A stretch of DNA of 64,000 nt from an uncultured Gemmatimonadales bacterium. GTDB taxonomy: Bacteria > Gemmatimonadota > Gemmatimonadetes > Gemmatimonadales > GWC2-71-9. Below, one piece after another: positions 15,904 to 55,151 of the stretch. The notes below the pieces were generated by a model that was not told the origin of the DNA, ran no database searches, and worked only from the letters and a program-made list of their open reading frames with translations. The translations under genes and the position numbers were made by a program. The stretch is from assembly GCA_963705985.1 (NCBI GenBank), contig CAVPLK010000003.1:67745-131744 (forward strand). Reading direction: 5' to 3'. Positions within the stretch are counted from its first letter, which is position 1. Each line of letters begins with the position of its first letter.

Positions 15904-15961
15904 CACGAAAGCACGAAAGTACGAGATTGAACGGCTCGTTTCGTGTTTTCGTGCTTTCGTG
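15904..15961. repeat. hairpin built from CACGAAAG octamers (copy 2 of CACGAAAR element)
   Basis: 5' arm is CACGAAAG CACGAAAG TACGAG, loop is ATTGAACGG, 3' arm is CTCGTTTCGTGTTTTCGTGCTTTCGTG. Starts 29 nt after the OMP stop codon. Confidence 0.8.
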
Positions 15962-15989
15962 GCCTCGGGGGCGGAGGTTGGGCGTCTGC

Positions 15990-16018
15990 TTGCCGGCATG
16001 GCATGAAAAGTGTATCAT
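15990..16018 (+). promoter_or_regulatory. candidate sigma-70 promoter of ssrA (TTGCCG-N17-TATCAT)
   Basis: -35 at 15990-15995 and -10 at 16013-16018, 14 nt upstream of the mature tmRNA 5' end. Confidence 0.5.
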
Positions 16019-16032
16019 TCTGACACACCCAA

Positions 16033-16394: not shown

Positions 16395-16412
16395 CTGCAC
16401 GACCACGCTGAG

Positions 16413-16448
16413 GACCGGAAGGGCCAGCCCTTACGGTCTTCGCTTTTT
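16413..16448 (+). terminator. rho-independent terminator of ssrA
   Basis: GACCGGAAGGGC / GCCCTTACGGTC stem followed by TTCGCTTTTT. Confidence 0.7.
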
Positions 16449-16617
16449 GTGCCCTCGCCCAGTCCTTGGCCTTCACTCTCCGGTCGCCAGTTCCGCTTCA
16501 CTCAATCATGACTCTTCCGGACCTTTACCGAGGGCCCGAAGAGGCATACGTTTCCCGAGTCCTTGGGGTGGCCACGTTGCGCCCCAGCGATCCCCCCCCT
16601 GAATCGTTGGAGGATGG

Positions 16618-19071
16618 ATGTCTCGCCGAGCCACCAGTGCAGTTGTAGCCCTGACCCTGTTTTCCTGGATGCCGTTGGCCGCCCAGCAGACCACCGGCAA
16701 GCCGGGGTCTCCCGACGCCACGACCACAATCGACGGACGGTATATCCCTGCCCAGCCGCAGCCGTTCCGCGGCACGATCAACATGGGCGCCCCGGAGTCC
16801 AGGCCCTACTGGGAGCCGGCCGTCGTGCCACCCAAGGGCGCGCCGAATATTCTGCTGATCATGACCGATGACGCCGGCTACGGCGTCTCGGGGACCTTTG
16901 GCGGCATCATCCCGACGCCGGCTCTCGACCGGGTCGCGAACGCCGGGCTCCGGTACACGCAGTTCCATTCCACGGCCCTCTGCTCACCGACCCGAGCCGC
17001 GTTGATCACCGGACGCAATCACCATTCAGTCGGCTTCGGCGTGATTGCCGAGCAGTCCACTGGCTACCCGGGGTACGATGCGGTCATCGGGCCGGAGAAC
17101 GCCACGGTGGGGACTATCCTCCGCGACAATGGATACGCCACCTCGTGGTTCGGCAAGAACCACAACACCCCCGGCTTCCAGTACAGCATCGCCGGCCCCT
17201 TTGACCAGTGGCCAAGCGGCATGGGCTTCGAGTACTTCTACGGGTTCATGGGCGGTGAGACGGACCAGTGGACGCCGTACCTCTTCCGGGACCACTCGCA
17301 GGTCTACCCCTGGGTCGGGAAGCCCGGCTACAACCTGATCACCGACATGGCGGACGACGCCATCCGGTACATGAACCAGCTCAACGATGCGGCGCCGGAC
17401 AAGCCGTTCTTCATCTATTACGTGCCAGGCGGCACCCACGCCCCGCACCAGCCGAAGCCGGAGTGGGTTGCCAAGTTCAAGGGCAAGTTCGACATGGGCT
17501 GGAATGCGATGCGGGACACCATCTTCGCCAACCAGAAGCGGCTCGGCGTGATCCCCGCCAATGCTCAGCTGACCCCGTGGCCCGACGATCTTCCAGAGTG
17601 GAACTCGCTCCCCGCGTTGAACAAGAAGCTCTTCGCGAGGCAGGCAGAGGTCTTTGCCGCCTACGTGGCCTACACTGACAATGAGATCGGTCGGGTCATT
17701 CAGGAAGTCGCAAACCTGGGCAAGCTCGACAACACCCTCATCATCTATATCGAGGGCGACAACGGGACGAGCGCGGAAGGATCCACGGTCGGCACCCCCT
17801 TCGACCTGGCCTCGATTCAGGGTATCGACGTGCCCGTGGCCGAACAGATGAAATACTATGACGCGTGGGGCTCGGCCGTGACACAGCCGCACATGTCGGT
17901 CGCATGGTCCTGGGCGTTCGATACACCGTTCAAGTGGACCAAGCAGATCGCCTCACACTTCGGCGGTACCCGACAGGGCATGGCCATGTCGTGGCCCGGG
18001 CACATTCCCGCCGGTGGTGTACGCAGCCAGTTCCATCACATGATCGACATCGCCCCGACGCTCCTCGAAGCCACGGGCGTCACCGCGCCGATCATGGTGA
18101 ATGGGATCGCGCAGCGCCCCATCGAGGGCGTGAGCATGGCCTACACCTGGAAACAGGATGGTGCCAAGGCGGCGTCAGCCAGGGAAACCCAGTACTTCGA
18201 AATGTTCGGTGGCCGTGCCATCTACCACGATGGGTGGGTCGCCGCGACCACCCCCTGGGCGGCGCCGTGGCTCATGGGCCTGGTCGGGAAGCCGCCGGCC
18301 GATGTGATCAACGGCTACACCTGGGAGCTCTACCACATCGACGAGGATTTCACGCAGAACAACGATCTGGCCGCCAAGAATCCAGACAAACTCCGGGAAC
18401 TCCAGGAGTTGTTCCTGGTGGAGGCGACCAAGTACCAGGTCTTCCCACTCGACAACTCGGTCGTGGCTCGCATTCTCGCGCCGCGCCCGAGCGCGAGCGC
18501 TGGCAAGGACCTCTTCACCTACAGTCGTGCGGAAGTCGGCCTTCCGCCCAGCGTGGCGCCGGATATTCTCACCAAGTCGTATACGGTCACGGCAGATGTG
18601 GACGTCCCGAAGGGCGGTGGTGAGGGGGTGCTGGCGACATTGGGTGGCCGGTTCGGCGGTTTCGGGCTCTATCTCGTCAAGGGTAAGCCAGTATTCTCCT
18701 ACAACCTCCTCGCGTTGGAGACGTTCCGCTGGGCCGGCGCTCAGGCGCTTTCCCCCGGCCGGCACACCATCGTCTTCGACTTCACCTATGACGGGCCCGG
18801 TGCCGGCAAGGGCGGCACTGGTGTGCTGAAGGTGGATGGCAAGGTGGTCGCCACCAAGGCCGTTCCGCACACCATCCCGTTCCTGATGACGATCGACGAG
18901 ACGTTTGACATCGGGTCCGACACGCGGACGTCGGTCAATCCGGCCGACTATGCGGTGCCGTTCACGTTCACCGGCACGATCAACGAGGTGACGATCGAGC
19001 TGGGGCCGTCGCGCCTGCTGAGCCAGGAGCGGCAGTCGATTCAACAGCGACTCGCGAGCGCGCTGGACTAG
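16618..19071 (+). CDS. secreted arylsulfatase (formylglycine-dependent sulfatase family)
   Basis: Signal peptide, sulfatase signature CSPTRAALITGRNHH, 817 aa, GGAGG RBS. By eye lower GC than the flanking genes. Confidence 0.9.
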   Translation: MSRRATSAVVALTLFSWMPLAAQQTTGKPGSPDATTTIDGRYIPAQPQPFRGTINMGAPESRPYWEPAVVPPKGAPNILLIMTDDAGYGVSGTFGGIIPTPALDRVANAGLRYTQFHSTALCSPTRAALITGRNHHSVGFGVIAEQSTGYPGYDAVIGPENATVGTILRDNGYATSWFGKNHNTPGFQYSIAGPFDQWPSGMGFEYFYGFMGGETDQWTPYLFRDHSQVYPWVGKPGYNLITDMADDAIRYMNQLNDAAPDKPFFIYYVPGGTHAPHQPKPEWVAKFKGKFDMGWNAMRDTIFANQKRLGVIPANAQLTPWPDDLPEWNSLPALNKKLFARQAEVFAAYVAYTDNEIGRVIQEVANLGKLDNTLIIYIEGDNGTSAEGSTVGTPFDLASIQGIDVPVAEQMKYYDAWGSAVTQPHMSVAWSWAFDTPFKWTKQIASHFGGTRQGMAMSWPGHIPAGGVRSQFHHMIDIAPTLLEATGVTAPIMVNGIAQRPIEGVSMAYTWKQDGAKAASARETQYFEMFGGRAIYHDGWVAATTPWAAPWLMGLVGKPPADVINGYTWELYHIDEDFTQNNDLAAKNPDKLRELQELFLVEATKYQVFPLDNSVVARILAPRPSASAGKDLFTYSRAEVGLPPSVAPDILTKSYTVTADVDVPKGGGEGVLATLGGRFGGFGLYLVKGKPVFSYNLLALETFRWAGAQALSPGRHTIVFDFTYDGPGAGKGGTGVLKVDGKVVATKAVPHTIPFLMTIDETFDIGSDTRTSVNPADYAVPFTFTGTINEVTIELGPSRLLSQERQSIQQRLASALD

Positions 19072-19093
19072 TTTCGCCAGGACCGAAAGTCGA

Positions 19094-19132
19094 ATCGGGG
19101 ACCCGGGGGCAGTTTGCCCTGGGATCCCCGAT
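19094..19132 (+). terminator. hairpin downstream of the sulfatase gene
   Basis: ATCGGGGA...TCCCCGAT outer stem with inner GC pairs. No clear U-tract. Confidence 0.4.
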
Positions 19133-19229: not shown

Positions 19230-19724
19230 CTAGATGTGTCCCGCCAGGTCGATCTTCTTGATCTTCTCTTCCTGCTCCTGCCGGAATTCCTTCAACTTCT
19301 TGGCCAGCACCTTGTCGGTGCGGGCCAGCATCGCCACGGCAAAGAGCGCGGCGTTGTGCGCACCAGCGTCGCCGATGGCGAAGGTGGCGACCGGAACGCC
19401 GGCTGGCATCTGCACGGTGGCGAGGAGCGAATCCATCCCCTGCAGGTGCCCCCCCGGCATTGGGACGCCGAGTACCGGGATCGTGGTACCCGCCGCCATG
19501 ACCCCGGCCAGGTGCGCCGCCATGCCTGCGGCGGCGATGATGCAGGTGAGCCCACGCGCCTCCGCGGTAGCGGCATACTCATGCGCCATGACGGGGGAGC
19601 GGTGCGCCGAGATGACCCTCGACTCACAGGCCACCCCGAAGTGAGAGAGGCGATTGGCGGCGTGCAGCATCACCGGCCAGTCGGAGGCGCTGCCCATCAC
19701 GATACCTACCAGGGGAGTCGTCAT
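19230..19724 (-). CDS. purE: 5-(carboxyamino)imidazole ribonucleotide mutase
   Basis: PLVGIVMGSASDW and class I PurE core. ATG 19724 shares one nt with the ppdK stop (TAATG). Confidence 0.93.
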   Translation of the reverse strand: MTTPLVGIVMGSASDWPVMLHAANRLSHFGVACESRVISAHRSPVMAHEYAATAEARGLTCIIAAAGMAAHLAGVMAAGTTIPVLGVPMPGGHLQGMDSLLATVQMPAGVPVATFAIGDAGAHNAALFAVAMLARTDKVLAKKLKEFRQEQEEKIKKIDLAGHI

Positions 19725-22390
19725 TATACCGTCGCTCGTGTGCGGTCCATGGTGCCGCGCTTGGCCAGCGCCGCTTGCGCGGCGGCCAGCCGGGCAATCG
19801 GCACGCGGAAGGGTGAACAACTGACGTAATTCATGCCCAGGTCATCGCAGAAGCCGATGGCAGCTGGCTCGCCGCCATGCTCCCCGCAGATACCGAGCTT
19901 GAGGTCCTGCCGGGTCCGGCGGCCGAGGTCGCAGGCCATCGCGACGAGCTTCCCGACCCCGGACTGGTCCAGGACCTGGAAGGGGTCGTCGGGGATGATG
20001 CCGTGCTCGATGTAATAGGGCAGGAAGCTGCCGGCGTCGTCCCGGGACAGGCCCCACGTCATCTGGGTCAGGTCGTTGGTGCCGAAGCTGAAGAACTGCG
20101 CCTCCCCCGCGATCTCGTCGGCGGTGAGCGCGGCGCGCGGCACCTCGATCATCGTCCCCAGCAGGTAGGGCACCGTCAGCTGTCGCTCCCGGAACACCTC
20201 TTCGGCGACCTGCCGCACGATGAGCGCCTGGCGACGATACTCCACGACGGTGGAGGTGAGCGGGATCATCACTTCCGGTTGGACCCGCCCCTTCCGCGCC
20301 GCCACCGTGCACGCCGCCTCAAAGATGGCCCGCGCCTGCATGGCGGTAATCTCGGGATGGATGATGCCGAGCCGGCATCCGCGGAGCCCGAGCATCGGGT
20401 TTTGCTCCTTCAGGCGGTCCACGATCCGCTGCAGCTCCTTCGGGTCCCGTCCCATTTCTGCCGCCAACCCGGCCACTTCGTCCGGGTCGTGCGGCAGGAA
20501 CTCGTGCAGCGGCGGATCGAGCAGGCGGATGGTGACCGGATAGCCCTCCATCGCCCGGAAGATGCCCTCAAAATCGCCGCGTTGCATCGGCAGCAGGCGG
20601 GCCAGCGCCTTCCGGCGTCCCTCGTCGTCGGCGGCGACGATCATCTCCCGCATCGCCGAGAGTCGGTCGCCCTCGAAGAACATATGCTCGGTGCGGCAGA
20701 GCCCGATCCCCTCGGCGCCAAAGTCGCGGCCCTTGTGGGCATCGGCCGGAGTGTCGGCGTTGACCCGAATCCGGAGCGTGCGCACCTTGTCGGCCCAGCC
20801 GAGGAGCTTGTCGAAGTTCCCCGACACCTCCGGGGCCACCAGCGCCGCCCGGCCAGCCAGCACCCGGCCGGTCGCGCCGTCGAGCGTGATCCACTCCCCC
20901 TCGCCAATCCGCCGGCCGTCGACCGAGAAGTGGCCCCCCTCCTCGTCGACGGTGAGTTCCTGTGCTCCCGCCACGCACGGCTTGCCCATGCCGCGCGCGA
21001 CCACCGCAGCGTGGGAGGTCATCCCGCCACGCGCGGTCAGGATGGCCTTTGCCTGGATCATCCCGTGGAAATCTTCCGGGCTCGTCTCGCGGCGCACCAG
21101 GATGACCGCCTCGCCCTTCTTGCCCAGTGCCTCCGCCCGGTCGGCGGTGAAGACCACGGCCCCCGAGGCCGCGCCAGGTGACGCCGGGAGGCCGGTCGTC
21201 AGGAGGTCGAGGGTGGCCTTCGGGTCGATGGTGGGGTGCAGGAGCTGGTCGAGGTCCATGGGAGGGATTCGGGCGACCGCCTCTTCCTGCGTGATCAGCC
21301 CTTCCGCGACCATCTCGCACGCGATGCGCACCGAGGCGTGCCCGGTGCGTTGCGCGCGGCGCGTCTGCAGCATGTAGAGCTTACGGTTCTCGATCGTGAA
21401 CTCGAGGTCCTGCACGTCGCGGAAATGGCGCTCCAGCGTGCGCGCCACTCGCTCGAGCTCCGCGAACGCCACCGGCAACGTCTCGCGGAGCGTCTCGATC
21501 GGCTCCGGGTCGCGCGAACCGCTGACGACGTCCTCACCCTGCGCGTTCAGCAGGTACTCCCCGTACAGCCGGTCCTCCCCGGTGGACGGGTCGCGGGTGA
21601 AGGCGACGCCGGTGCCGGAGCCCTCGCCGAGGTTTCCGAAGACCATCGTCACGATGTTGACCGCGGTGCCCATCGAGTCGGGAATGTCGTGTAGCCGGCG
21701 GTAGTCGATGGCGCGCTTGGTGTGCCAGCTCTCGAAGACCGCCTCGATGGCGCCCCACAACTGGTCGAGCGGGCGGTCCGGAAACGGCTTGCCGGTGGCG
21801 GCGGTGATGTGCGCCTTGAACTCCTTCACCAGCGCCTGCATCTCCTCGGCCGGCAGGTCGATGTCGCGCGCGACCTTGGCCTTCAGCTTGCGCTGCGCCA
21901 GCATCTCCTCGAACGGCGCCTTGGGCAGGTCGAACACCACGCAGCCGTACATCTGCACGAACCGCCGGTAGGAATCCCATGCGAAGCGGGGGTTCTTGCT
22001 CTGCTTCGCGAGGCCCGCAACCGTCTCGTCGTTGAGGCCGAGGTTGAGGATCGTCTCCATCATCCCGGGCATGGAGACGGCAGCCCCGGAGCGCACCGAC
22101 ACCAGCAGCGGATCGTCCACGCCGCCGAAGATCCTGCCGGTGGCGGCCTCGAGCCGCTGCAGCGCCGCCTCGACCTGCTGCAGCAGGCGCGGCGGGAACT
22201 GGCGCGACTCGAGGTAGGCGATGCAGATGGAACTGGCGATCGTGAATCCCGGGGGGACCGGGATGCCGATATTGGTCATCTCCGCAAGGCCGGCGCCCTT
22301 GCCGCCGAGGAGATCCTTCATGGCGGCCGTGCCGTCGGCGCGGCCCTGGCCAAAAAAGTAGACGAGAGGTTGGGTCATTCCACCGGTCAT
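19724..22390 (-). CDS. ppdK: pyruvate, phosphate dikinase
   Basis: 888 aa. ATP-grasp N-terminus, phospho-His swivel domain (TARGGMTSHAAVVARG) and PEP-utilising C-terminal TIM barrel. Confidence 0.96.
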   Translation of the reverse strand: MTGGMTQPLVYFFGQGRADGTAAMKDLLGGKGAGLAEMTNIGIPVPPGFTIASSICIAYLESRQFPPRLLQQVEAALQRLEAATGRIFGGVDDPLLVSVRSGAAVSMPGMMETILNLGLNDETVAGLAKQSKNPRFAWDSYRRFVQMYGCVVFDLPKAPFEEMLAQRKLKAKVARDIDLPAEEMQALVKEFKAHITAATGKPFPDRPLDQLWGAIEAVFESWHTKRAIDYRRLHDIPDSMGTAVNIVTMVFGNLGEGSGTGVAFTRDPSTGEDRLYGEYLLNAQGEDVVSGSRDPEPIETLRETLPVAFAELERVARTLERHFRDVQDLEFTIENRKLYMLQTRRAQRTGHASVRIACEMVAEGLITQEEAVARIPPMDLDQLLHPTIDPKATLDLLTTGLPASPGAASGAVVFTADRAEALGKKGEAVILVRRETSPEDFHGMIQAKAILTARGGMTSHAAVVARGMGKPCVAGAQELTVDEEGGHFSVDGRRIGEGEWITLDGATGRVLAGRAALVAPEVSGNFDKLLGWADKVRTLRIRVNADTPADAHKGRDFGAEGIGLCRTEHMFFEGDRLSAMREMIVAADDEGRRKALARLLPMQRGDFEGIFRAMEGYPVTIRLLDPPLHEFLPHDPDEVAGLAAEMGRDPKELQRIVDRLKEQNPMLGLRGCRLGIIHPEITAMQARAIFEAACTVAARKGRVQPEVMIPLTSTVVEYRRQALIVRQVAEEVFRERQLTVPYLLGTMIEVPRAALTADEIAGEAQFFSFGTNDLTQMTWGLSRDDAGSFLPYYIEHGIIPDDPFQVLDQSGVGKLVAMACDLGRRTRQDLKLGICGEHGGEPAAIGFCDDLGMNYVSCSPFRVPIARLAAAQAALAKRGTMDRTRATV

Positions 22391-22392
22391 GC

Positions 22393-23778
22393 TCAGCTCA
22401 CGGTCAGGGGGGACGCGTGCTGGATCTGGACCACGGCATCCGGCACGGCGGTCGGATAGTCGCCGGAGAAACAGGCGTGACAGAACGGCCCTCCGCCGGC
22501 CGCGCCGACCATGCCATCGAGACTGAGGTATCCCAGCGTGTCGACGCCGAGGTATTCCCGGATCTCTTCCAGCGAATGCGTCGAGGCGATCAGCTCTTCT
22601 CTGGTCGGGGTGTCGATACCGTAGTGGCAGGGCCCGGTGATGGGGGGTGAGGCCAGGCGGAGATGCACTTCGCGGGCGCCGGCGGCGCGGATCATCTGGA
22701 CCAGGCCCCGGCTCGTGGTCCCGCGGACCAGGCTGTCGTCGATGACAACGACCTTCTTGCCCTCGATGATGCCGCGCACCGGATTGAACTTGATCTTGAC
22801 CTTGGCGACCCGGTGCGACTGGGTCGGGTGGATGAAGGTGCGGCCGACGTAGTGATTGCGGATCAGTCCATGCTCGAGCTTGATGCCGGAGGCCTCGCTG
22901 TAGCCGAGGGCCATGGCGTTGCTGCTGTCCGGAACGGAGAAGACCACGTCGGCGCCGGGCGCCGGGTGCTCCAGGGCCAGCCGCCGGCCGGCCTCGCGGC
23001 GGACGCGGTCGACCGACATCCCGAAGATGTCGCTGTCGGGCCGGGCAAAGTAGATCAACTCAAAGACGCAACGGCTGACCGGCTTGGGCCGAAGCGGCTG
23101 CAGGTCCTCGATGACGCCATCGGTGATGCGCAGGAACTCGCCGGGCTTCATTTCGCGGAGGAAGGTCGCGCCGACCAGGTCCAGAGCGCAGGTCTCGCTG
23201 GCGGCCACCACTCCCGTGCCGAGGCGGCCAAGCACCAGCGGCCGGAAGCCGCGCGGATCGACCACCGCGTAGAGCGTGCGTCCGACGCCGATGATCAGGC
23301 TGTATGCGCCCTCGACCCGCGCCAGTGCGGACCGGATCTGGAGTTCGGGGTCAGGAACTTCGGAGCGTGCGATCAGGTGGACCAGCACTTCGGTATCGCT
23401 CGACGACGTGAAGATCGAACCGCGTTCGACCAGCGTCTTCTTGATGTCGGCGGCGTTGGTCAGGTTGCCGTTGTGCGCGACACAGAGCGACCCGATGCGA
23501 TAGTTGACGAGGCAGGGCTGGGCGTTGGCCAGGACGGTGCTGCCCGTGGTGGAGTAGCGGGTGTGCCCGACCGCGACGTCACCCGGGAGCTGTTCCAGCT
23601 CGGCTTCGCCGAAGGTCTCCGACACCAGGCCCATCCCGATGGTCTGGCGTGACTCGCCGTCCGGCGTGATGGCCACGATGCCGGCACTCTCCTGCCCCCG
23701 ATGCTGGAGGGCATAGAGCCCGAGATAGGCCACGCGGGCCGCATCGGGGACACCGGACACTCCCATGATTCCGCACAT
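22393..23778 (-). CDS. purF: amidophosphoribosyltransferase
   Basis: N-terminal MCGI (Ntn Cys), PRT motif VVVIDDSLVRGTT, C-terminal Cys cluster. Confidence 0.96.
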   Translation of the reverse strand: MCGIMGVSGVPDAARVAYLGLYALQHRGQESAGIVAITPDGESRQTIGMGLVSETFGEAELEQLPGDVAVGHTRYSTTGSTVLANAQPCLVNYRIGSLCVAHNGNLTNAADIKKTLVERGSIFTSSSDTEVLVHLIARSEVPDPELQIRSALARVEGAYSLIIGVGRTLYAVVDPRGFRPLVLGRLGTGVVAASETCALDLVGATFLREMKPGEFLRITDGVIEDLQPLRPKPVSRCVFELIYFARPDSDIFGMSVDRVRREAGRRLALEHPAPGADVVFSVPDSSNAMALGYSEASGIKLEHGLIRNHYVGRTFIHPTQSHRVAKVKIKFNPVRGIIEGKKVVVIDDSLVRGTTSRGLVQMIRAAGAREVHLRLASPPITGPCHYGIDTPTREELIASTHSLEEIREYLGVDTLGYLSLDGMVGAAGGGPFCHACFSGDYPTAVPDAVVQIQHASPLTVS

Positions 23779-23781
23779 GCG

Positions 23782-26085
23782 CTAGGCCTCCGCTCGGTCG
23801 CTGACGACCTCGCGCATCCGGCGCGGGATCGCGTCATCGTACACAGAACGGAGCCGGTCGATCGGCCACCGGTGGACAGTGCCAGGCAGGACGAATTCCA
23901 GTGATTCGCCGGGCGCCCGAACCTCGCCGGCGAGGTAGCCCTGCAGTCCGTGACGGCTGAGGAGCGCTCGGAGGCCCGGCAGAGCAGACGGGGCCACGCT
24001 GAGCACGACCCGGCCATGATCCTCGCCGTAGAGCACCTGGACGTCGGAGAGGCCGGGGGCGTAGGTGCGGAGGTCGATGATGGCTCCGAAGCCCCGCTCC
24101 GCGTAGGGGCCGCCGATGGCTGCCTCGGCCAGGGCGACGGCGAGTCCGCCCTCGGAACAGTCGTGCGCCGACCGAACGAGCCGCGCGGCGGCGGCTGCCA
24201 CGAGGAACCGCTGGAGCCGTGCCTCGTGGTCCAGGTCCACCGTCGGGCCGGCTCCGCCGAGGAAGTCACAGAGCTCCGCCCAGTACGCCGAGCCGCCCAA
24301 GGCGCCGGTACTGCCGCCGACGATCACGATGCGGTCGCTCACGGCCCGGAAATGGCTTGGCACGCGGTCTTCCGCCTTGCGGAGGAGGCCGACCATGCCC
24401 ACCGTCGGCGTGGGGTCCACCGCTCCGGTGGGACTCTCGTTGTAGAACGAGACGTTGCCGCCCGTCACCGGCGTTCCGAACGCGCGGCAGGCGTCGGAGA
24501 TCCCGCGACAGGCTTCGGTGAACTGGAAGAACACTTCCGGCTTCTCGGGGTTGCCGAAGTTCAGGCAGTCGGTGATGCCCAGCGGTTCGGCGCCGGTGCA
24601 GGCGACGTTGCGCGCCGCCTCGGCGACCGTCGCCTTGCCCCCCTCGTAGGGATCAAGCGCCACCAGCCGGTTGTTGCAATCGACGCTCACCGCCATGGCG
24701 AACGGCTCGGTCCCGACCCGGAAGACGCCGGCGTCACCGCCGGGGCCGAGCATCGTGGCGGCCTGCACCGTGGAATCGTACTGCTCGTACACCCACCGCT
24801 TGCTGGCGATGGAGGGCGCGTCGAGCAGCGCCTCCAGCGCCTCGGTCACGCCGACCCGCGGAGCCGTGGCGGGTTTCGCCTTGCGGCGCGCGGCGGCCGC
24901 AGGGGCCTCCCGCGCCTCGGGGGTGTAGATCGGGCAGTCATCCACCAGCGGCTGACCGGGAATCTCGGCGACGGTCAGGCCGTTGTGCCGGACGCGGAAC
25001 AGCCCGTCGTCGGTGACGTGACCGATGGCCGTGGCGTCGAGCTCCCACTTCTGGCAAACGGCCTGGATGGCGCTGACCTGGTGCGGTTCGGCCACCACGA
25101 GCATCCGCTCCTGTGATTCGGAGAGGAGAATCTCGTAGGGCGTCATCCCGGCTTCTCGCGTCGGGACCAGGCCGGTGTCGATCTCCACCCCGACGCCGCC
25201 GCGGGCGGCCATCTCGGCGCTGGAGCTGGTGAGCCCCGCCGCGCCCATGTCCTGGATCGCCACGATGAGTTTCGAGGTAATCAGCTCGAGGCTCGCCTCG
25301 AGGAGCAGCTTCTCGGTAAACGGATCGCCGACCTGCACCTGCGGGCGGCGCGCCTCGCTCTCTTCGGAGAGCTCTTCCGAGGCGAAGCTCGCGCCGTGGA
25401 TGCCGTCGCGGCCGGTCTTGGCACCGACGTTGAGCAGCACGTTTCCGACGCCGTGGGCCCGGGCCGTGGCCAGGTCCGCCTCCCGCAGGATGCCCACGCA
25501 CATCGCGTTGACAAGCGGATTGCCGGAGTACCCCGGCGCGAAGCCGACTTCGCCGCCGAGGGTGGGCACGCCGATGCAGTTGCCGTAGTCGCCCACGCCG
25601 CGCACCACGCCGGCAAAGAGGTAGCGGTTGCGCGGCTCCGTCAGCGGACCGAACCGGAGACTGTTCAGCACCGCCACGGGGCGGGCGCCCATGGTGAAGA
25701 CGTCCCGCAGGATGCCGCCGACCCCGGTCGCGGCGCCCTGGTAGGGTTCCACCGCGGAGGGATGGTTGTGGGACTCGATCTTGAACGCGACGGCCCAGCC
25801 GTCGGGAAGCCGCAGCACGCCGGCGTTCTCGCCGGGACCCTGGACGACCTGGGGTCCCGTGGTCGGGAATCGCCGGAGGACCGGCTTGGAGTGCTTGTAG
25901 GAGCAGTGCTCCGACCAGAGCGCGGAGAAGACGCCGAGCTCCGTCAGCGTCGGTTGCCGGCCGAGCATCGCCACGATGCGGTCGAATTCGGAGGCGGTCA
26001 GGTTGTGCTCCCGGACGACCTCCATGGTCACCGGTCGTTCTCCCGGGAAGGAGGCGGCGCGGGTGACCGGTGCAGCAGTGCTCAT
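23782..26085 (-). CDS. purL: phosphoribosylformylglycinamidine synthase subunit PurL
   Basis: 767 aa small-PurL architecture (duplicated AIRS-like domains; ESHNHPS motif). Confidence 0.96.
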
Positions 26086-26411
26086 TTCGACTCCGGGCGG
26101 GGCGCACGCAGCGCCGCAGAAAAATCACGCACGACGCGGCCCAGCAGGGTGGGGTCGTTCTTGGCGACCACCGCCGCGATCTCATCGGCGTCCAGGAAGA
26201 TGCCCTGGCAGTGCACGCAGCGGTCCACCGTCACCCCGTGGAACTCCTCGTGCACCAGGTCGTGTCCGTCCTTCGGGCACTTCATGTGGTGCAGCTGCCG
26301 GGTCGCTTCCTCGGCGGCGGCCTTGGCCCGCTCGCGCTGCGCCTTGAGCAGCTCCGCCTCTTCCCTGGCGAAGTACTCGTCTTCGCTCTTGCTTGGTTTT
26401 TGTGGGGTCAT
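26082..26411 (-). CDS. small coiled-coil + zinc-ribbon (zf-TFIIB-like) protein
   Basis: 109 aa. Charged helical N-terminus, then KCPKDGH...[15 protein letters not shown]. Stop overlaps the purL start (ATGA). GGAG lies 10 nt upstream of its ATG. Confidence 0.65.
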
Positions 26412-26425
26412 GCGCGGCGACTCCG

Positions 26426-27118
26426 TCAAGAAGTGGATCGAGTGGTCCGGCCAGGGAGCCACTCGGCAATGGAACGGAAGAACCCGGCGCCGACATCGCT
26501 CCCGGTCAGGGGCTCGGCATAGCGCTCGGGGTGGGGCATGAAGCCGACGACGGTGCCGGCGGCGTTCGAGACGCCGGCAATATCGGCGACCGACCCGTTG
26601 GGGTTTTCCCCCCGGGTGTACCGCAACACGACCCGGCCCTCGGCTTCCAGCATCCGGAGGGTATCGTCGTCCGCCACATAACAGCCGTCGCCGTGGGCCA
26701 CCGGTATCCGGATCTCCGTCCCGCGTGCATAGGCGCTGGTGCAGAAGGTGTCGGTGCGCTCGACGCGGACCCACACCGGACGCGACACGAACGTCAGGCG
26801 GTCGTTCCGGACCAGCGCCCCGGGGAGCAGATGCGCTTCGCAGAGGATCTGGAACCCGTTGCAGATGCCGAGCACGGCGCCCCCCTCGGCGGCGTGGCGC
26901 TGCACCGCCTGCATGACCGGGCTGAACCGGGCAATGGCGCCGGAGCGGAGATAGTCGCCGTAGCTGAATCCGCCCGGCAGGATCACCACGTCGGCCTGCT
27001 GCAGGTCGGTGTCGCGGTGCCAGACGAATCGTGCCTCCGCCCCGGCGTTCGCCACCGCACGGTACGCATCCCAGTCGCAGTTGCTGCCCGGGAACCGAAC
27101 GACCGCAACGCGCAGCAT
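26426..27118 (-). CDS. purQ: phosphoribosylformylglycinamidine synthase glutaminase subunit
   Basis: MLRVAVVRFPGSNCD..., with GICNGFQ (nucleophile Cys) and HPE triad elements. Start shares one nt with the purS stop. Confidence 0.94.
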   Translation of the reverse strand: MLRVAVVRFPGSNCDWDAYRAVANAGAEARFVWHRDTDLQQADVVILPGGFSYGDYLRSGAIARFSPVMQAVQRHAAEGGAVLGICNGFQILCEAHLLPGALVRNDRLTFVSRPVWVRVERTDTFCTSAYARGTEIRIPVAHGDGCYVADDDTLRMLEAEGRVVLRYTRGENPNGSVADIAGVSNAAGTVVGFMPHPERYAEPLTGSDVGAGFFRSIAEWLPGRTTRSTS

Positions 27119-27366
27119 CAGCCCTCCACGGCCAGGCTGAAGTCTTCGGTCACCGGGTTGGCCAGCAGCTTCTCGCACATCTGGCGGGCCGACGCCTGGG
27201 CGGCTTCAGCGCTTGGGGCGTCGATCGCGAGCTCGATGGCCCGGCCGACGCGGACATCGCCCGCGCCCTTGAACCCCAGGACCGCCAGTGCATGCTCGAC
27301 GGCCTGGCCCTGCGGATCGAGCAGACCGGCCCGGGGGACGACCCGGATGTGTACGCGATACGTCAT
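27118..27366 (-). CDS. purS: phosphoribosylformylglycinamidine synthase subunit PurS
   Basis: 82 aa with LLDPQGQAVEHAL and ANPVTEDF motifs typical of PurS. Confidence 0.9.
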   Translation of the reverse strand: MTYRVHIRVVPRAGLLDPQGQAVEHALAVLGFKGAGDVRVGRAIELAIDAPSAEAAQASARQMCEKLLANPVTEDFSLAVEG

Positions 27367-28205
27367 GAGGTGGATCCCTCGTGGTGGTCGTGCCCGTGGT
27401 CCGGGCGTACCTGAAGAGTCTGGGCTTCCACGGTGTCCTCGGCCCGCTCGGACAGGGCGATGAACGTGCTCCGGAGAATACCGAAGAGGAGATAGCCGAT
27501 GAAGAACGGAAAGAGGAACCGGGACGGGGCAAGGATCACCCCGGCCAGAATGCCCAGGGTGATCAGCGTGCCGAGTATGCCGGCGAGGGACCGGAAGCCG
27601 ATCCGGGGCGTCCGGGGGTACTTGACGGTGCTGAGCATCATCGCGGAGAGCGCGAGCATCAGGAAGGTCAGTCCCTGGCGCTGGAGGTCCAGGTATTCCG
27701 GGAACTTCTGATACCACTCGGTCTGGCTGAAGGCGAAATAGGTGGCCAGCGTCATCCCGGCGGCCGTCGAGGGGAGCCCGCTGAACCAGCCGGGAGTCCC
27801 TGAGCCGGCGGCCGTGATGTTGTACCGCGCCAGGCGGATGGCCGCGGCCGCGATGTAGAGGAAACTGAGCACCCACGCAAATCGGCCGGCTTCGGCAAAC
27901 TCCAGGAAATACATGAGCATGGCGGGGGCCACGCCGAAGGAGATCACGTCGACGAGCGAATCGAGCTCGGCGCCGAACCGGGTGCCGGTGTGCGAAAGGC
28001 GCGCCAGGCGTCCGTCGAGCACGTCGGCGACTCCGGCGAAGACGATGAACCACCCCGCCCACTTGAAGTTGCCCTGGGCGGCGTAGACGATCGACCAGAT
28101 GCCGAAGAAGAGGTTGCCCAGGGTGAACGCGCTGGGGATCACGATGATGGCGCGCCGGAGGCCGGGACGGCGAGGGGGCTGCCCGGCCGTTGCCTGATCG
28201 CTCAT
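27363..28205 (-). CDS. pssA: CDP-diacylglycerol--serine O-phosphatidyltransferase
   Basis: CDP-alcohol phosphatidyltransferase motif DVLDGRLAR...GAELDSLVD and a multi-TM body. ATG 28205 gives an ATGA overlap with psd; ATG 28211 is the alternative. Confidence 0.88.
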   Translation of the reverse strand: MSDQATAGQPPRRPGLRRAIIVIPSAFTLGNLFFGIWSIVYAAQGNFKWAGWFIVFAGVADVLDGRLARLSHTGTRFGAELDSLVDVISFGVAPAMLMYFLEFAEAGRFAWVLSFLYIAAAAIRLARYNITAAGSGTPGWFSGLPSTAAGMTLATYFAFSQTEWYQKFPEYLDLQRQGLTFLMLALSAMMLSTVKYPRTPRIGFRSLAGILGTLITLGILAGVILAPSRFLFPFFIGYLLFGILRSTFIALSERAEDTVEAQTLQVRPDHGHDHHEGSTS

Positions 28206-28828
28206 GGCCACTCCCCGATGATGGTGACGCCTGCCACGGTCCGCTCCCCCTCCGCCACCGTGATGGTGGCACCCCTGGGAAGGAAGACGTCGACCCGCGA
28301 CCCGAACCGGATCAGGCCCATCCGCTCTCCTTGCCGCACCGCGGTGCCCTCGCCGTGGTCGGTGACGATGCGGCGGGCAACCAGCCCGGCAATTTGCCGC
28401 ACGAGGACCTTGCCCCGCGTCGTCACGATGCCCACCGAGGACTGCTCGTTTTCCAGCGAGGCCTTCTCGGACGCCGCGTTCACGAACGCCCCGGGCGAGT
28501 ACTTCCGGTAGGTAATCGACCCGTCCACCGGATACCGGTTCACGTGCACGTTGAAGACGTTCATGAAAATGGAGACCCGGCGCACCTCGCCACCGTGGAA
28601 GTCGGGCTCGTCGATGTCCCGGACGCTCACCACCAGCCCGTCCGCGGGGGCGATCACCAGCCGCTCGCCCCGGGGACCGGTCCGGACCGGATCGCGGAAG
28701 AAGGCGATCACCCAGATCGCGACCGGAAGCCAGATGATCGCGGCGGTGGGAAAGCCGAACATCACCAGCCCCAGCTCGGCGAACCAGAACGCCGCAATGA
28801 ACGGCCAGCCCTCACGCGCGATGCGCAT
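28202..28828 (-). CDS. psd: phosphatidylserine decarboxylase proenzyme (short form)
   Basis: 208 aa. N-terminal TM and an FGSRVDV-type self-cleavage region. Confidence 0.88.
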   Translation of the reverse strand: MRIAREGWPFIAAFWFAELGLVMFGFPTAAIIWLPVAIWVIAFFRDPVRTGPRGERLVIAPADGLVVSVRDIDEPDFHGGEVRRVSIFMNVFNVHVNRYPVDGSITYRKYSPGAFVNAASEKASLENEQSSVGIVTTRGKVLVRQIAGLVARRIVTDHGEGTAVRQGERMGLIRFGSRVDVFLPRGATITVAEGERTVAGVTIIGEWP

Positions 28829-29750
28829 CAGCCGTCCTCGGGCAGCGGGTGCCCGGTCAGGCGTTCGTAGGCGTCCACGTAGCGGGCGCTGGTGGCGTCC
28901 AGGACCTCACGCGGCAGCGTGGGCGGGGGTGCCTCGCCGTTCCAGCGCCCGCTCGGCCTTCAGCACCGCGAGGTAGTCGCGCAGCGGCTGCTTGTCGAAG
29001 CTGGGCTGGGCCCGCCCCGGCTGGTAGCGGTCGGCGGGCCAGAACCGGGACGAATCGGGGGTGAGCACCTCGTCGATGACCCGGAGGGTGCCGTCGGCGT
29101 CCCGGCCGAACTCGAACTTCGTGTCGGCGATGATGATGCCGCGCGCCGCGGCGTGCCCGCGGCCCGCCTCGTAGAGGCGGAAGCTGGCGTCCCGCAACGC
29201 CTCCGCCTCCACCGTGCCGAGGGCCTCGGCCATCGTGTCGAACGTCACGTTCTCGTCGTGGCCGCTCTCCGCCTTGGTGGCAGGGCTGAAGATCGGCGGG
29301 TCGAGCCGGTCGCTCTCCACCAGGCCGGGCGCCAACGGCTCTCCCGCCAGGGTGCCGGTCTTCCGATACTCCGCCCAGGCCGAGCCGGTGATGTAGCCGC
29401 GGACCACGCATTCGAACGGCACCGGCGTCGTCCGGCGCACCAGCATGGTGCGCCCGCGAATGGCCTCACGATGCGGGGCGAGGTCCGGGTAGCGCTCGAG
29501 GATCTCGCCCGCATTGGCCGAGATGAAGTGCGACGGGAAGACGCCGGCCAGCTGTCCGAACCAGAAGGCGCTGACCTGGGTGAGGACGCGGCCCTTCTGC
29601 GCGATCGGTTCGTGCATCACCACGTCGAACGCGCTGATCCGGTCGCTGGCCACCAGCAGGAGTCGATCGGCGCTCGACCTCGTAGACCTCGCGCACCTTG
29701 CCCGCGCGGAGGAGGGGGAGGGGCAGCTCGCTGCGGAACATGACGGTCAT
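28828..29750 (-). pseudogene. purC: SAICAR synthase carrying two +1 frameshifts (or two assembly errors)
   Basis: N-terminal GKVREVYEV (frame 1), [11 protein letters not shown]...[10 protein letters not shown] (frame 2) and [31 protein letters not shown] (frame 3) are all PurC-like. Removing one nt near 29672 and one near 28945 gives a continuous 306-aa PurC. Confidence 0.85.
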
Positions 29751-31190
29751 ACTCGTACCTCGGCGGTGTCAGGGCGTACCGCCAGCGGGCGCGCGCGTGC
29801 GGCCAGCGGGACGGCGTATTCCTGCAGGAACTCGGCGACCTGCTGCCGGGCCCGCCCCGCGTACTTCGACGGTTCGAGCTCGGCCTTCAGCGCGCCCGAG
29901 GGAATCTTCGCGAACGCGGGGTCGGCGCCGAGTCGGTCCATCAGGTCGTTGGGCTCGCCCCGCGCGACGTTGGCGGCGACGATCATGCTGTGCCGGCGCA
30001 TCACCTCGTGCAGCGCCTGGCGGTCGCCTCCGGCCGAGACGCCCAGCATCAGCCACCGCTCGGTGGCCATGAACGGCATCTGGGTCATCACGTGGCGGCG
30101 AATCACGTCCGGCCGCACCTCGAGGCCGGCGGCGATGTTCCCGGCGAGGATGAGGATCGCATCGGTGGCGAGAAACGCCTCCGGCAGAGTCAGGCGCCGG
30201 TTGGCGCTGTCGTCGAGGGTGCGCTCGAGCCACTGGTTGGCTGCCGTCTGCGCCGTGTTGGCCTGCAGGGACATGACGAACCGGGCGAGCGCGCTGATCC
30301 GCTCGGCGCGCATCGGGTTCCGCTTGTAGGCCATGGCGCTCGAGCCGATCTGCTCCGATTCGAAGGGTTCCAGGAACTCGCCCTCGTGCTGCAGGAGGCG
30401 GAGGTCGCCGGCCAGCTTGGAGGCGGACTGCGCGACGCCGGAGAGCACGTCGAGCACGGCGCGTCGACCTTGCGCGTGTAGGTCTGTCCGGTGACGGCCC
30501 AGGTGCGGTCGAACCCCAGGCGCTGGGCGACCCGCCGGTCGAGTTCGCGCACCTTGCCGTGGTCGCCGCCGAAGAGCTCGAGGAACGACGCCTGGGTTCC
30601 GGTGGTGCCCTTGCAGCCGCGGAGGCGCAGCGTCTCGAGGCGGTGGCAGAGGTCCTCGACGTCGAGCGCCGAAGTCCTGCATCCAGAGCGTGGCGCGCTT
30701 GCCGACGGTGGTGAGCTGGGCCGGCTGGAAATGGGTGTAGGCCAGGCAGGGCTCGCCGGCGTGACCGCTCGGCGAAGCCGCCGAGGGCGTCGAGGACCGC
30801 GAGGAGCCGCCCCAGCACGAGGCGGAGCCCTTCGCGGATGACGAGCAGATCGGCGTTGTCGGTCACGAAGGCGCTGGTGGCGCCCGAGGTGCAGGAACGG
30901 ACGCGGCGGCGGGGGCCTGGTCGCCGAAGTGCGTGCACGTGCGCCATCACGTCGTGCCGGAAGCGCCGCTCGTATTCGGCGGCGGTGGCGAGGTCGGCAT
31001 CGTCCAGGTGGGCGCGCATTTCCTCGAGCGCGGCCTTCGGGATGTCGAGGCCCAGCTCGCGTTCCGACTCGGCGAGGGCCAGCCAGACACGGCGCCAGAG
31101 ACCGATGCGGTGCGGCTCGCCCCAGAGGCGCTGCATGGCCGGGGAGGCGTAGCGGGAGCCGAGGGGGGAGCGCCAGCGATCGTCGGTCAT
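29747..31190 (-). pseudogene. purB: adenylosuccinate lyase carrying about six single-nt indels (or assembly errors)
   Basis: PurB-like segments switch among all three frames. Putative +1 insertions lie near 30929, 30901, 30882, 30764 and 30670, and a -1 deletion near 30460. The corrected reading is 479 aa with [33 protein letters not shown] and [14 protein letters not shown] motifs. Confidence 0.85.
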
Positions 31191-32593
31191 CGATACACCA
31201 GGTCCGTGTAGGCGGTTTGCCCGTTGCGTTCGACCCAGATGCGAAACGCTTGGCCGGGGCGGAGGTCGTCCAGAAACACGCTCAAGTCGGTCGCGGTGGC
31301 CACGCGACGGCGGTCGAGACCGATGATGACGTCATTCTCGCGCAATCCGGTCGCGTCGGCGGTCCGTGGCGCGATGCTGACGACGAGCGCACCCTGGTCG
31401 CTTTGCAGGCCGCGTTCGGCCCGGATGGCCGGCGTGATGCTCACCAGCTGCAGGTCCTCCAGCACCGTCACGCGCGCGGCGGTCCGGGTCGGGAGGTCGC
31501 TCGCGACGAGGGTGCGGGTGAAGGTGGCGTTCCCGCGGCGCGTGACGAGCAGGACGGTGTCTCCCACGCCCAGGTCGAGCTTGACCGATTCCCAGTCGAG
31601 ATGATTGTGCAGGGTGCGCCCGTTGGCCGAGACGAGGACGTCGCGCCGCTGGATGCCGGCGCGTGCGGCGGGCCCGCTGGGGGCTACGCCGGCCACCACG
31701 AGGCCGTTCGACGCGCGCCAGTCCTCGAAGTTCTGCGGCGGCGTGACGTCGAGGCCGGTCCAGGCCCGTCGCACGGCGCCGTTGCCGAGCAGCAAGTCCG
31801 CCACCCGCAGCGCGCGCTCGATGGGAATCGCGAAGCCGAGGCCGATCGAGCCGCCGCTGTTCGAGAGGATGGATGAATTCACCCCGACCACCTGGCCCAG
31901 CGCGTTGGCGAGGGGCCCGCCGGAATTGCCGGGATTGATGGCGGCGTCGGTCTGGATCATGTCGAGGTACAGGCCCGCCTGGCCCTCCGAGGGGAGGATG
32001 TTGCGCCCGGTCGCGCTCACCACGCCGGCGGTGACCGTCGGTTCGGTATTCCCGAGGTAGTCGGCGTACGGGTTGCCGAGCGCGACGACCCACTCGCCGA
32101 CCATGAGCTCGCTGCTCTTCCCGAGCGGGACGGTCGGCAGGCCGCGTCCCGCCACCTGGATCACGGCGATGTCCGACACCGGGTCGGCGCCCACGAGGGT
32201 CGCCGGAAGCTGGGTGCCGTCGGTGAGGGTCACGGTGATCTGTTCCGCACCGGCCACGACGTGCTGGTTGGTGAGGATCACCCCGTTGCCCCGGATCAGG
32301 AAGCCGGTGCCGGAGCCGCGGACGAGTTGCGAGGTGTACCGGGGCACAAACATGTCGGCCCAGGAAGACCGCATCGCCACCTGCTGCCGGGCGGCGACGC
32401 TGATCGACACGACCGCCGGCGCGAGTCGTTCCACCGCCGTGACGATGGCGGTGCGTCGACCGGTATCGAGCGTGGATTGGGCGCTGAGGGCGGGGGCGAC
32501 GCAGGCCAGCAGCATGCCGCCGACCGCACCCGCCCGCGCACCGTCGAGCGCGCGGCGGAAGGCGGGTCGTGCGGAGTTGTGGCGAGACGTCAT
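31187..32593 (-). CDS. periplasmic serine endoprotease, HtrA/DegP family (trypsin domain + 2 PDZ)
   Basis: Signal sequence, catalytic GNSGGPL, two PDZ-like repeats. ATG 32593 overlaps the truA stop (ATGA). The longer ORF to 32986 is Arg/Gly-rich non-homologous extension. Confidence 0.88.
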
Positions 32594-33375
32594 GCGGCAT
32601 CCCCGGCGTGGTCGGCGAATGCCCCCGCCGGATACTCGGCGGAGACGAAATACAGTCCTTCGGGCGGCGCGGGTGGACTGGTGTCGGCGTTGTCCTCCCG
32701 CGCCAGCAGGGCGGCGAGGTCCTCGACCGGTCTCCGCCCGAGGCCGATGTCCACCATCGTGCCGACCAGCATCCGGACCATATGGTGCAGGAACCGGTCG
32801 GCCGCGACGTGAAAGGTGAATCCCTGGTCGGCTACCCGCGGCCGCCACTCCGCCCGCCGGAGGGTGCACCGGTAGTGCGGCTTCGGCTCGCCCTTGACCG
32901 CGAAGGCCCGGAAGCTGTGTTCGCCGGGCAGCGAGGCGGCGGCCTCGTGCAGCCGGTCGCTGTTGAGGTCCCGACCCAGCGCCCATTCATAGGGGCGGCG
33001 AAAGGGGGACATCGACGCGGCGTCCACGCCCACCAGGTAGCGATACTCGCGACCGATGGCGCTCTTCCGCGCGTGGAACCCGGGATTCGCCAGCCGGACC
33101 CGCTCCACCCAGCAGTCGCGGGGAAGCAGCGCGTTCAACGCGCGATGCACCGCGTCGGGTTCCCACTTGGCCGCCAGGCTGAAGCTGACACCCATTCCCA
33201 CGGCATGGACGCCCGCATCGGTCCGGCCGGCGCCGTGGGCGACCACGCGACGTCCGTCGAGCCGCTCCAGAACCCCTTCAATTTCGGCCTGAACTGTGCG
33301 GCCGGATGCCTGCCGTTGCCAGCCGAGAAATCGGCCGCCATCAAAGTGCAACAGGGCGAGAAAAGTCCGGCTCAT
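32590..33375 (-). CDS. truA: tRNA pseudouridine(38-40) synthase
   Basis: GAGRTDAGVHA catalytic-Asp motif. 261 aa. Confidence 0.93.
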   Translation of the reverse strand: MSRTFLALLHFDGGRFLGWQRQASGRTVQAEIEGVLERLDGRRVVAHGAGRTDAGVHAVGMGVSFSLAAKWEPDAVHRALNALLPRDCWVERVRLANPGFHARKSAIGREYRYLVGVDAASMSPFRRPYEWALGRDLNSDRLHEAAASLPGEHSFRAFAVKGEPKPHYRCTLRRAEWRPRVADQGFTFHVAADRFLHHMVRMLVGTMVDIGLGRRPVEDLAALLAREDNADTSPPAPPEGLYFVSAEYPAGAFADHAGDAA

Positions 33376-55149: not shown

Positions 55150-55151
55150 GC

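Follow-up and report, generated by a model that had tools for sequence, protein, structure and literature searches.

Has this bacterium lost two steps of purine synthesis, or has its assembly misread them? The question is raised by purB (adenylosuccinate lyase) and purC (SAICAR synthetase), two adjacent genes of the 64-kb stretch of DNA analysed here (the window), whose reading frames are broken by eight single-base indels. From comparisons with related sequences, we conclude that the eight indels are very probably errors in the consensus of a metagenome assembled from long reads and not the trace of a lost pathway. Purine synthesis is almost certainly complete in this organism.

Position and repair of the frame changes

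Translation of the minus strand in three frames, together with a GC3 frame plot, agrees with the initial annotation in that purB and purC are recognisable only by hopping between frames. The indels were placed by frameshift-aware protein-to-DNA alignments, using four relatives per gene. They were also placed by aligning the DNA with that of the unbroken orthologues in a sister Gemmatimonadales MAG (L081), then in L081 and a second sister (L082). The eight coordinates first proposed were recovered to within a few bases (Table 1).

Table 1 Genes and frame changes at the purB-purC locus, in window coordinates. Inserted bases are in square brackets.
Feature	Position	Strand	Description
htrA-like serine protease	31187..32593	(-)	intact; stop overlaps purB start (ATGA); upstream boundary of the patch
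purB (adenylosuccinate lyase)	29747..31190	(-)	1444 nt as sequenced; six frame changes; repaired product 479 aa
purB +1 insertion no. 1	30929-30932	(-)	CACGC[A/C]CTTCGG, directly 5' of the FGDQ motif
purB +1 insertion no. 2	30901-30906	(-)	GCCGCC[G]CGTCCG
purB +1 insertion no. 3	30882-30885	(-)	CTCGG[G]CGCC, within HLGATS
purB +1 insertion no. 4	30761-30764	(-)	GAGCGG[T]CACGCC
purB +1 insertion no. 5	30661-30670	(-)	TTCGGCGC[T]CGAC; aligner position 30665
purB -1 deletion	30458-30463	(-)	GAC-GCGCC, without the A of GAC AGC
purC (SAICAR synthetase)	28828..29750	(-)	two +1 insertions; repaired product 306 aa
purC +1 insertion	29669-29675	(-)	GTCG[A]GCGCC, near codon 25-28
purC +1 insertion	28945-28956	(-)	about 40 codons 5' of the stop, upstream of WNGEAPPP
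psd (phosphatidylserine decarboxylase)	28202..28828	(-)	intact; start overlaps purC stop (TGATG); downstream boundary of the patch

As given, the purB DNA does not form an uninterrupted reading frame (six frame changes). Once the insertions are removed and the deleted base is restored, it measures 1440 nt. Repair of both genes yields the product lengths that had been announced, 479 aa for PurB and 306 aa for PurC, along with the canonical motifs. Repaired PurB scores 353.7 bits on TIGR00928 over profile positions 3-435 of 436, above the cut-off of this NCBIfam equivalog (326.2 bits). The two unrepaired ORFs reach 77.1 and 152.8 bits (positions 3-135 and 227-435), both below it. Pfam finds Lyase_1 and ADSL_C in the repaired protein. 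The first three purB insertions span 47-48 nt; as had been claimed, they jointly restore the frame and scramble the active-site segment FGDQ...HLGATS. The sequence FLHLGATSAF is regained only once insertions nos. 2 and 3 are removed, and the fumarase/lyase signature (GSSAM.YKRNP) is unbroken in the 3' frame of the unrepaired gene. The A put back at the deletion restores a serine that is invariant among 119 homologues. Repaired PurC scores 400.8 bits on NF010568 (positions 8-294 of 297; an NCBIfam equivalog, cf. TIGR00081, with a cut-off of 251 bits) and 248.9 bits on PF01259.

The indels had been called non-homopolymeric. This holds in that no site contains a run of four or more bases, but some three of the seven could be described as lengthening a run of one or two bases. 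The classic Nanopore signature is deletion within homopolymers; a ratio of seven insertions to one deletion, away from long homopolymers, departs from it and counts against an assembly artefact. Errors of basecalling at methylation motifs were considered, GCGC-like contexts being present at several sites, and rejected: at 70% GC such a motif occurs every ~70 nt and the errors would not stay within 2 kb.

Distribution of the indels in the window and in related assemblies

The two genes belong to an operon ordered truA-htrA-purB-purC-psd-pssA-purS-purQ-(Zn ribbon)-purL-purF-ppdK-purE. ATGA overlaps with the neighbours had been described; they are found at the htrA/purB and purB/purC junctions, but purC and psd share a 1-nt TGATG overlap. 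Some 56 further ORFs of the window were scanned with Pfam, and their domains are covered over their full length in a single frame. Outside purB and purC, no frameshift was found in the genes of the 64 kb, and purE, purF, purL, purQ, purS and guaA are all unbroken. Alignment of window positions 19.7-41.5 kb with L082 gives, as the sole other gap in a coding region, an in-frame gap of 3 nt near the 5' end of lexA (~34344). The Pfam scans and this alignment thus bear out the earlier statement that the other annotated genes are unaffected. No further gap was seen within the 2.36 kb of purB and purC in the DNA alignment with L081 and L082.

By scan-statistic arithmetic, the chance that eight uniformly placed events fall within ~2 kb of 64 kb is ~2e-10. 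Eight indels in 2 kb, against none in the other 62 kb, demand a local cause, and this concentration counts against an assembly artefact. A repeat search of 28-32 kb returned short chance matches only. The composition profile shows no anomaly at the patch.

Alignment to the closest genomes, a check suggested with the initial annotation, found the indels to be private to the window's assembly. The three-way DNA alignment of the window with L081 and L082 covers 13.5 kb at 84-86% nucleotide identity. Its gaps are single-base only, each private to one assembly, and none reaches 3 nt. Those private to the window are seven insertions and one deletion, all in purB and purC; purB insertion no. 1 is absent from both sisters. 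L081 has nine private gaps (eight insertions and one deletion; two in htrA, five in purL, one in purF and one intergenic), dispersed across 9 kb, and 34 aa of its PurL are scrambled by frameshifts. L082 has none.

Frameshifts were also sought in a wider set of loci. In L081 (the 1.18-Mb contig_4) three genes are frameshifted and in the MFD MAG L004 one, ppdK. Over the same 12-15 genes, ten Gemmatimonadales loci from short-read assemblies are free of frameshifts. Two of the 83 loci with purB carry a frameshifted copy (L018 and L034, both MFD long-read MAGs), and purB is unbroken in 76 of the 76 other loci, those not on long contigs. Fisher arithmetic on this association gives ~0.006. Beyond the window, the frameshifts number nine in L081, one in L004, two in L018 and one in L034. 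They are limited to loci on Mb-scale or MFD Nanopore contigs, and more than 70 loci from short-read assemblies or isolates have none. Across the five assemblies, 19 of 21 frame changes are +1 and two are deletions. Purine genes are prominent among the genes struck in the window and in L081, which a biological explanation could use, yet htrA and ppdK are struck too.

The window's contig is 1,624,403 bp long (1.62 Mb). MFD-LR MAGs derive from Nanopore data alone, with Flye as the assembler and a single round of Medaka as the polishing step (PMC12313526). The sister MAGs have this kind of pipeline, in which short reads play no part in polishing. In Nanopore consensus sequences, indels are the dominant error; they produce false pseudogenes, the more so at low coverage (PMC8103633).

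A search of the protein database for an intact purB or purC of the same species found none, the best matches being 89% identical; the closest PurB homologues, at this identity, have 479 aa. With a 196-aa query over all six purB sites, no same-species fragment was found (best match 86% identical). The scan of the genome collection likewise gave a best match of 86%. A Logan contig of ERR12037370 (2,140 bp), the only independent contig, which covers one of the eight indel sites (28945-28956), encodes Psd and PurS identical to those of the window. In its gene table, the 3' end of purC is an uninterrupted 100-codon frame across this site, where that of the window ends after 43 codons. A literature search for ERR12037370 gave no match. 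Judged from this table, the contig is implied to be without at least the 28945 insertion. Ten possible repairs of its 100-aa purC fragment were looked up exactly and none is in the collection. An exact look-up of PurS returned only the same contig, and those of the window's 248-aa PurC fragment (P0164) and of HtrA with three alternative starts gave no match.

Assembly error weighed against gene loss

The repaired proteins were compared with 119 homologues each. One of 188 invariant columns deviates in PurB and none of 107 in PurC. The lone PurB deviation stems from an arbitrary choice in the repair, which leaves 0 real changes at 295 invariant residues. No in-frame stop was found in repaired purB or purC. 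Window-private substitutions amount to 6.5-6.7% in the two genes and 67-72% of them are at third positions, as in neighbouring genes; taken alone, this codon-position test could hardly reveal a pseudogene phase that was very short, and the invariant-residue test is the stronger of the two. The initial annotation was therefore right to see no substitution decay. Thus purB and purC have the disrupted frame of a pseudogene and show no sign of its relaxed selection. What is found is a set of private single-base indels in genes under purifying selection, in an error class that recurs in long-read and not in short-read relatives.

Consensus error is the favoured reading because the indels are private, the same error class is present in sister long-contig MAGs, the genes show no decay and the Logan contig appears to be without at least one insertion. 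The comparative evidence supports the preference, expressed at the outset, for an assembly artefact over gene loss. purB and purC would then be normal, functional members of a translationally coupled operon, in a Gemmatimonadales bacterium of soil type. They would lie in a ~2-kb patch of a long-read contig where support for the polished consensus was poor. Given its Mb-scale length and its relatives, the contig is most probably a Nanopore-only product of a pipeline of the Flye and Medaka type. The patch may come from a local drop in usable coverage, or from a pile-up in which reads of closely related species or strains were mixed; extra bases would have been emitted there by the polisher. As a lead only, the polisher might have merged two wobble alleles at each insertion (GC[AC], CG[GT] and GC[TC] here, TA[TC] and GT[CG] in L081), the placement of the inserted bases being ambiguous.

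A real and very recent loss of purC and purB, by a burst of single-base insertions, would make the organism a purine (and adenine) auxotroph dependent on its community. We consider this very unlikely. The deposited sequence does carry the indels, with both frames destroyed, the lesions are restricted to two genes that are neighbours and share a pathway, and there is no intact same-species copy among the database matches. However, five neutral substitutions per indel would, by our estimate, give ~10-20 changes at invariant residues, and eight frameshifts have come with none and with no stop. Private substitutions are mostly at third positions, as in the neighbours, and the remaining pur genes are all unbroken. 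Other essential genes show the same +1 pattern in other long-read MAGs, none of them in a short-read MAG, and the gene table of the Logan contig points to a copy of purC without at least one insertion. The bias towards insertions is also the reverse of that towards deletions in bacterial pseudogenes, reportedly described by Mira, Ochman and Moran in 2001.

A real defective variant could also have been caught by chance, if the consensus followed a few reads of a minority or dead-end lineage, or of relic DNA, while the bulk of the population is intact. The tight 2-kb patch would suit a stretch backed by very few molecules, and the Logan contig implies that some read set has at least one of the sites in intact form. 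This explanation is nevertheless very unlikely. Eight real +1 or -1 mutations on one molecule, without substitutions at conserved sites, are as unlikely as population-wide pseudogenisation. If the reads are few, raw-read error accounts more simply for the same pattern, and L081 shows this pattern over 9 kb.

It is highly improbable that an unrecognised mutational process of high-GC soil bacteria adds single bases in bursts beside codon third positions. If true, it would inactivate purB and purC here, htrA, purL and purF in L081, and purB in two Planctomycetota MAGs; such bursts would give rise to frequent, short-lived auxotrophs.

Recoding, by programmed ribosomal frameshifting or transcriptional slippage at eight sites, has a probability close to negligible: the corrected frames are perfectly conserved, as expected of a recoded gene, but no site has a slippery heptamer, an in-frame stop, a rare-codon pause context or a homopolymer of four or more bases, in line with what had been noted from the site contexts, and none is conserved in any orthologue. 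To our knowledge, eight shifts of both signs in two genes have no bacterial precedent (cf. prfB and dnaX frameshifting and poly-A slippage in endosymbionts).

Consequences and comparison with known systems

In Nanopore-only MAGs, conserved genes can bear frameshifts of the insertion type in tight clusters, and purB and purC provide a worked example. Read at face value, such clusters lead to false pseudogene counts, false calls of auxotrophy or host dependence, and fragmentary protein records in databases. One record of this kind is present already, the window's PurC fragment of 248 aa (P0164), and the protein search returned several truncated PurB ORFs on contigs of 0.1-1.9 Mb. The lesson is that auxotrophy should not be inferred from such MAGs. 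The 19:2 insertion bias over five assemblies may assist the tuning of polishers.

Among known systems, prfB, dnaX and slippage in endosymbionts are similar to purB and purC in that the product needs a change of frame relative to the DNA. In contrast, their sites are defined slippery or homopolymer motifs conserved among orthologues, and the eight sites of the window have neither property. Pseudogenes of Mycobacterium leprae, Sodalis and Serratia symbiotica likewise carry several frameshifts each, in biosynthetic genes that can still be recognised from end to end. These genuine pseudogenes show relaxed selection, deletional bias and usually a wider decay of the pathway, none of which is observed in purB and purC. 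The false pseudogenes of Nanopore-only MAGs are also made by private single-base indels that fragment conserved genes without decay (PMC8103633, PMC12313526). As with these errors, only long-contig assemblies are affected in this clade. The textbook Nanopore error is an error of homopolymer length, scattered with coverage, whereas the indels of the window are insertion-biased, outside long homopolymers and clustered.

Frame disruptions in purB and purC

The window, whose composition profile gives a G+C content of about 69%, carries a tightly packed purine operon on the minus strand. Within it, purB and purC are recognisable over their full length but scattered across all three frames of a minus-strand translation, and the phase switches of a GC3 frame plot agree with this. 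We wrote a frameshift-aware protein-to-DNA aligner and used as references PurB and PurC, each from four relatives. Every reference protein returned identical events (see table). Removing or adding one base per site gave a purB of 1440 nt (479 aa) and a PurC of 306 aa, the lengths proposed in the initial annotation. Both repaired proteins pass the NCBIfam equivalog thresholds (PurB, 353.7 bits on TIGR00928, cut-off 326.2; PurC, 400.8 bits on NF010568, cut-off 251). As they stand, the purB ORFs reach 77 and 153 bits, below the cut-off; the purC fragment (profile positions 36-267 of 297) scores 327.6 bits and passes even unrepaired. The eight single-nucleotide indels of the initial annotation are thus confirmed, coordinates included. 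The ATGA overlaps claimed with the neighbouring genes are found after repair at htrA/purB and purB/purC, but the purC/psd junction is a TGATG overlap.

Features of the window and of related loci (window coordinates unless stated; indels in window purB and purC from the frameshift-aware alignment, operon genes assigned from Pfam)
Feature	Position	Strand	Remark
Purine operon	19230-33246		
truA	33.2 kb	-	operon member
htrA-like protease	32593-31187	-	operon member
purB	31190-29747	-	operon member
purC	29750-28828	-	operon member
psd	28828-28202	-	operon member
pssA, purS, purQ, zinc-ribbon gene	downstream of psd	-	operon members
purL, purF, ppdK, purE	down to 19.2 kb	-	operon members
psd and pssA	27363-28828		phospholipid genes
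purB +1	about 30926-9	-	
purB +1	about 30901-4	-	
purB +1	about 30882-5	-	
purB +1	about 30758-64	-	
purB +1	about 30661-70	-	
purB -1	30458-61	-	
purC +1	29669-75	-	
purC +1	28948-51	-	
ORF without Pfam match	15054-15875		low-G+C stretch
No coding signal, ~0.9 kb	15857-16750		low-G+C stretch
Sulfatase, 800 aa	16669-19071		low-G+C stretch
Cytochrome c gene	48558-49097		after MauG-like gene
Di-haem cytochrome c peroxidase/MauG-like gene	49097-50254		after MbnP-family gene
MbnP-family gene	50251-51141		
ORF without Pfam match, 523 aa	53578-55149		adjoins ABC ATPase
ABC ATPase	55152-56009		
L081 htrA indels	7916, 8009		L081 coordinates
L081 purL indels	14109/14212, 14759, 14963, 15162		L081 coordinates
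L081 purF indel	16723		L081 coordinates
L081 purF/ppdK junction indel	17361		L081 coordinates
L004 ppdK	~20030		one +1
L018 purB	9297-10672		two +1 frame changes
L034 purB	9280-10696		one +1 frame change

Between purC and purS, the purine operon includes the phospholipid genes psd and pssA, whose start and stop codons overlap. All 14 Gemmatimonadales loci examined share the order truA-htrA-purB-purC-psd-pssA-purS-purQ-Zn ribbon-purL-purF-ppdK, where the locus is long enough.

About 60 coding segments were called by codon-position G+C and all were scanned against Pfam. Wherever a domain is recognisable, the gene is covered over its full length and in one frame, also in the cases suspected from the frame plot (a glycerate-kinase-like gene at 43434-44717, panC, truA and a DUF1207 gene). 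DNA alignment with L082, a sister Gemmatimonadales MAG, over 19.7-33.2 and 33.2-41.5 kb revealed no further coding-region gap except one of 3 nt, in frame, near the 5' end of lexA (~34344). Scan and alignment thus support the initial view that the defects are limited to purB and purC. By our arithmetic, eight events inside 1,988 nt of the 64-kb window have a probability of about 2e-10 under uniform placement. A repeat search and the composition profile gave no feature explaining why this 2 kb was affected.

Elsewhere in the window, the stretch 15000-19100 has a G+C of 0.62-0.64 vs ~0.69 and may be acquired DNA. The MbnP-family and MauG-like genes are a putative MbnP/MbnH-like copper-related pair. 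AT skew is strong (0.18-0.29) at 53000-55200 and 58000-61000, and several small ORFs without matches occupy 56.6-59.0 kb.

Comparison with sister and long-read assemblies

The nearest genomes to the window are uncultured Gemmatimonadales. Two sister assemblies that share the window's gene order were identified by exact look-up of its top-scoring PurC and PurB homologues: L081 (ERZ25039527 contig_4, 1.18 Mb) and L082 (ERZ25039503 contig_53150, 1.13 Mb). All operon genes are intact in L082; in L081, purB and purC are intact and htrA, purL and purF are split. A three-way DNA alignment (13.5 kb, pairwise identity 84-86%) is free of gaps of 3 nt or more. Its gaps are single bases, every one private to one assembly: seven insertions and one deletion in the window, all in purB/purC; eight insertions and one deletion in L081 (htrA 2, purL 5, purF 1, one intergenic); none in L082. 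Among the five purL events, a compensated -1/+1 pair scrambles 34 residues and leaves the ORF unbroken. Three genomes about 15% divergent thus show zero in-frame length differences in the operon genes, yet two of them carry 8-9 frameshifting single-base indels. The insertion bias is alike in both, roughly 8:1, and the essential genes affected differ. L081 also has tryptophan-pathway genes (PALP/trpB-like, PRAI, IGPS, trpD-like) around lexA, between a HEAT-repeat gene and truA (1972-6157), which are missing at window 33.2-34.7 kb and L082 6814-7837.

Across ten assemblies of this clade built from short reads, the 12-15 syntenic genes carry no frameshift. Several relatives of the window are Microflora Danica (MFD) long-read MAGs, with MFD... 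names and contig_N labels. The MFD MAG L004 is frameshifted once in ppdK. Two of the 83 purB loci examined are frameshifted, both from MFD long-read Planctomycetota MAGs (L018 and L034). purB is unbroken in all 76 loci outside long contigs; seven loci are on long contigs (Fisher ~0.006, our arithmetic). Over five assemblies, the spectrum is 19 insertion-type events vs 2 deletions. Nanopore reads were the sole input to the MFD catalogue, which used Flye --meta --nano-hq and one Medaka round without short-read polishing, and its authors state that lower-coverage MAGs carry Nanopore-associated errors (PMC12313526). The protein database assigns both the window's purC fragment and its Psd to one contig of 1,624,403 bp, present in NCBI and ENA. 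For such an organism this size suggests that the metagenome was assembled from long reads, and we infer that the contig belongs to an MFD-type Nanopore-only project.

Origin of the indels

Real, recent pseudogenisation of purB and purC is very improbable. Repaired PurB and PurC, each aligned with 119 homologues, were compared at columns invariant in all others. PurC deviates at 0 of 107 and PurB at 1 of 188; the homologues themselves average 0.2-0.4 deviations. The PurB deviation (Ser242) reflects an arbitrary base choice in repairing the deletion: DNA alignment shows that the A of GAC AGC is missing, and replacing it restores the invariant Ser. The repaired genes contain no in-frame stop. The share of window-private substitutions is 6.7% for purB and 6.5% for purC, against 4.6-9.7% for ten neighbouring genes, and about two thirds of them fall at third codon positions. 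Eight neutral indels, even at one per five substitutions, would imply about 30 amino-acid changes, 10-20 of them at invariant residues, but none was observed. Genuine bacterial pseudogenes are deletion-biased, opposite to the bias seen here. The remaining pathway is intact (purE, purF, purL, purQ, purS, with guaA), and the same pattern recurs in other long-read MAGs.

Gene loss is also opposed by an independent Logan contig (2,140 bp, run ERR12037370) encoding Psd and PurS identical to those of the window. Its 100-codon open frame upstream of psd ends exactly at the psd start; in the window a stop lying 43 codons short of its end interrupts this frame. Because the frame is open there, the contig indirectly indicates, from its gene table and for one of the eight sites, that the 28945-28956 insertion is absent. 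Exact-sequence look-up of the 100-aa purC fragment gave no match.

That the consensus caught a real defective minority molecule is similarly improbable, and no likelier than error in the raw reads. Recoding by programmed frameshifting or by transcriptional slippage is practically negligible, since a motif is wanting at the sites and these are not conserved.

The data are best explained by poor local support of the long-read consensus, which over ~2 kb would produce spurious single-base indels in purB and purC. The frameshifts are almost certainly not biological. Private indels, recurrence in long-read MAGs and the lack of decay support the artefact reading favoured in the initial annotation.

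Consequences and comparison with known Nanopore errors

Neither purine auxotrophy nor host dependence should be inferred from this MAG, and clustered +1 frameshifts in Nanopore-only MAGs deserve suspicion. Such assembly errors spread into protein databases. The window's 248-aa purC fragment (P0164) is already a public entry, and a protein database search with a short query found truncated PurB ORFs within 0.12-1.9 Mb contigs. P0164, P0245, P0298 and P0361, broken PurC/PurB ORFs of Mb-scale contigs, are separate entries.

Many window insertions can be written as two different tandem bases at a third codon position (GC[AC], CG[GT], GC[TC]), as can many in L081 (TA[TC], GT[CG], GC[GC]); placement of the inserted base is ambiguous in both. 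As a lead, the tandem bases might be both synonymous alleles of co-occurring strains or related species, emitted by the polisher on a mixed pile-up. Nanopore consensus errors are mostly indels, inflate pseudogene counts and worsen at low coverage (PMC8103633). The indels had been called non-homopolymeric, which holds in that none of the sites is part of a run of four or more bases, unlike the classic long-homopolymer error of Nanopore, but about three of the seven insertions lengthen a run of 1-2 bases.
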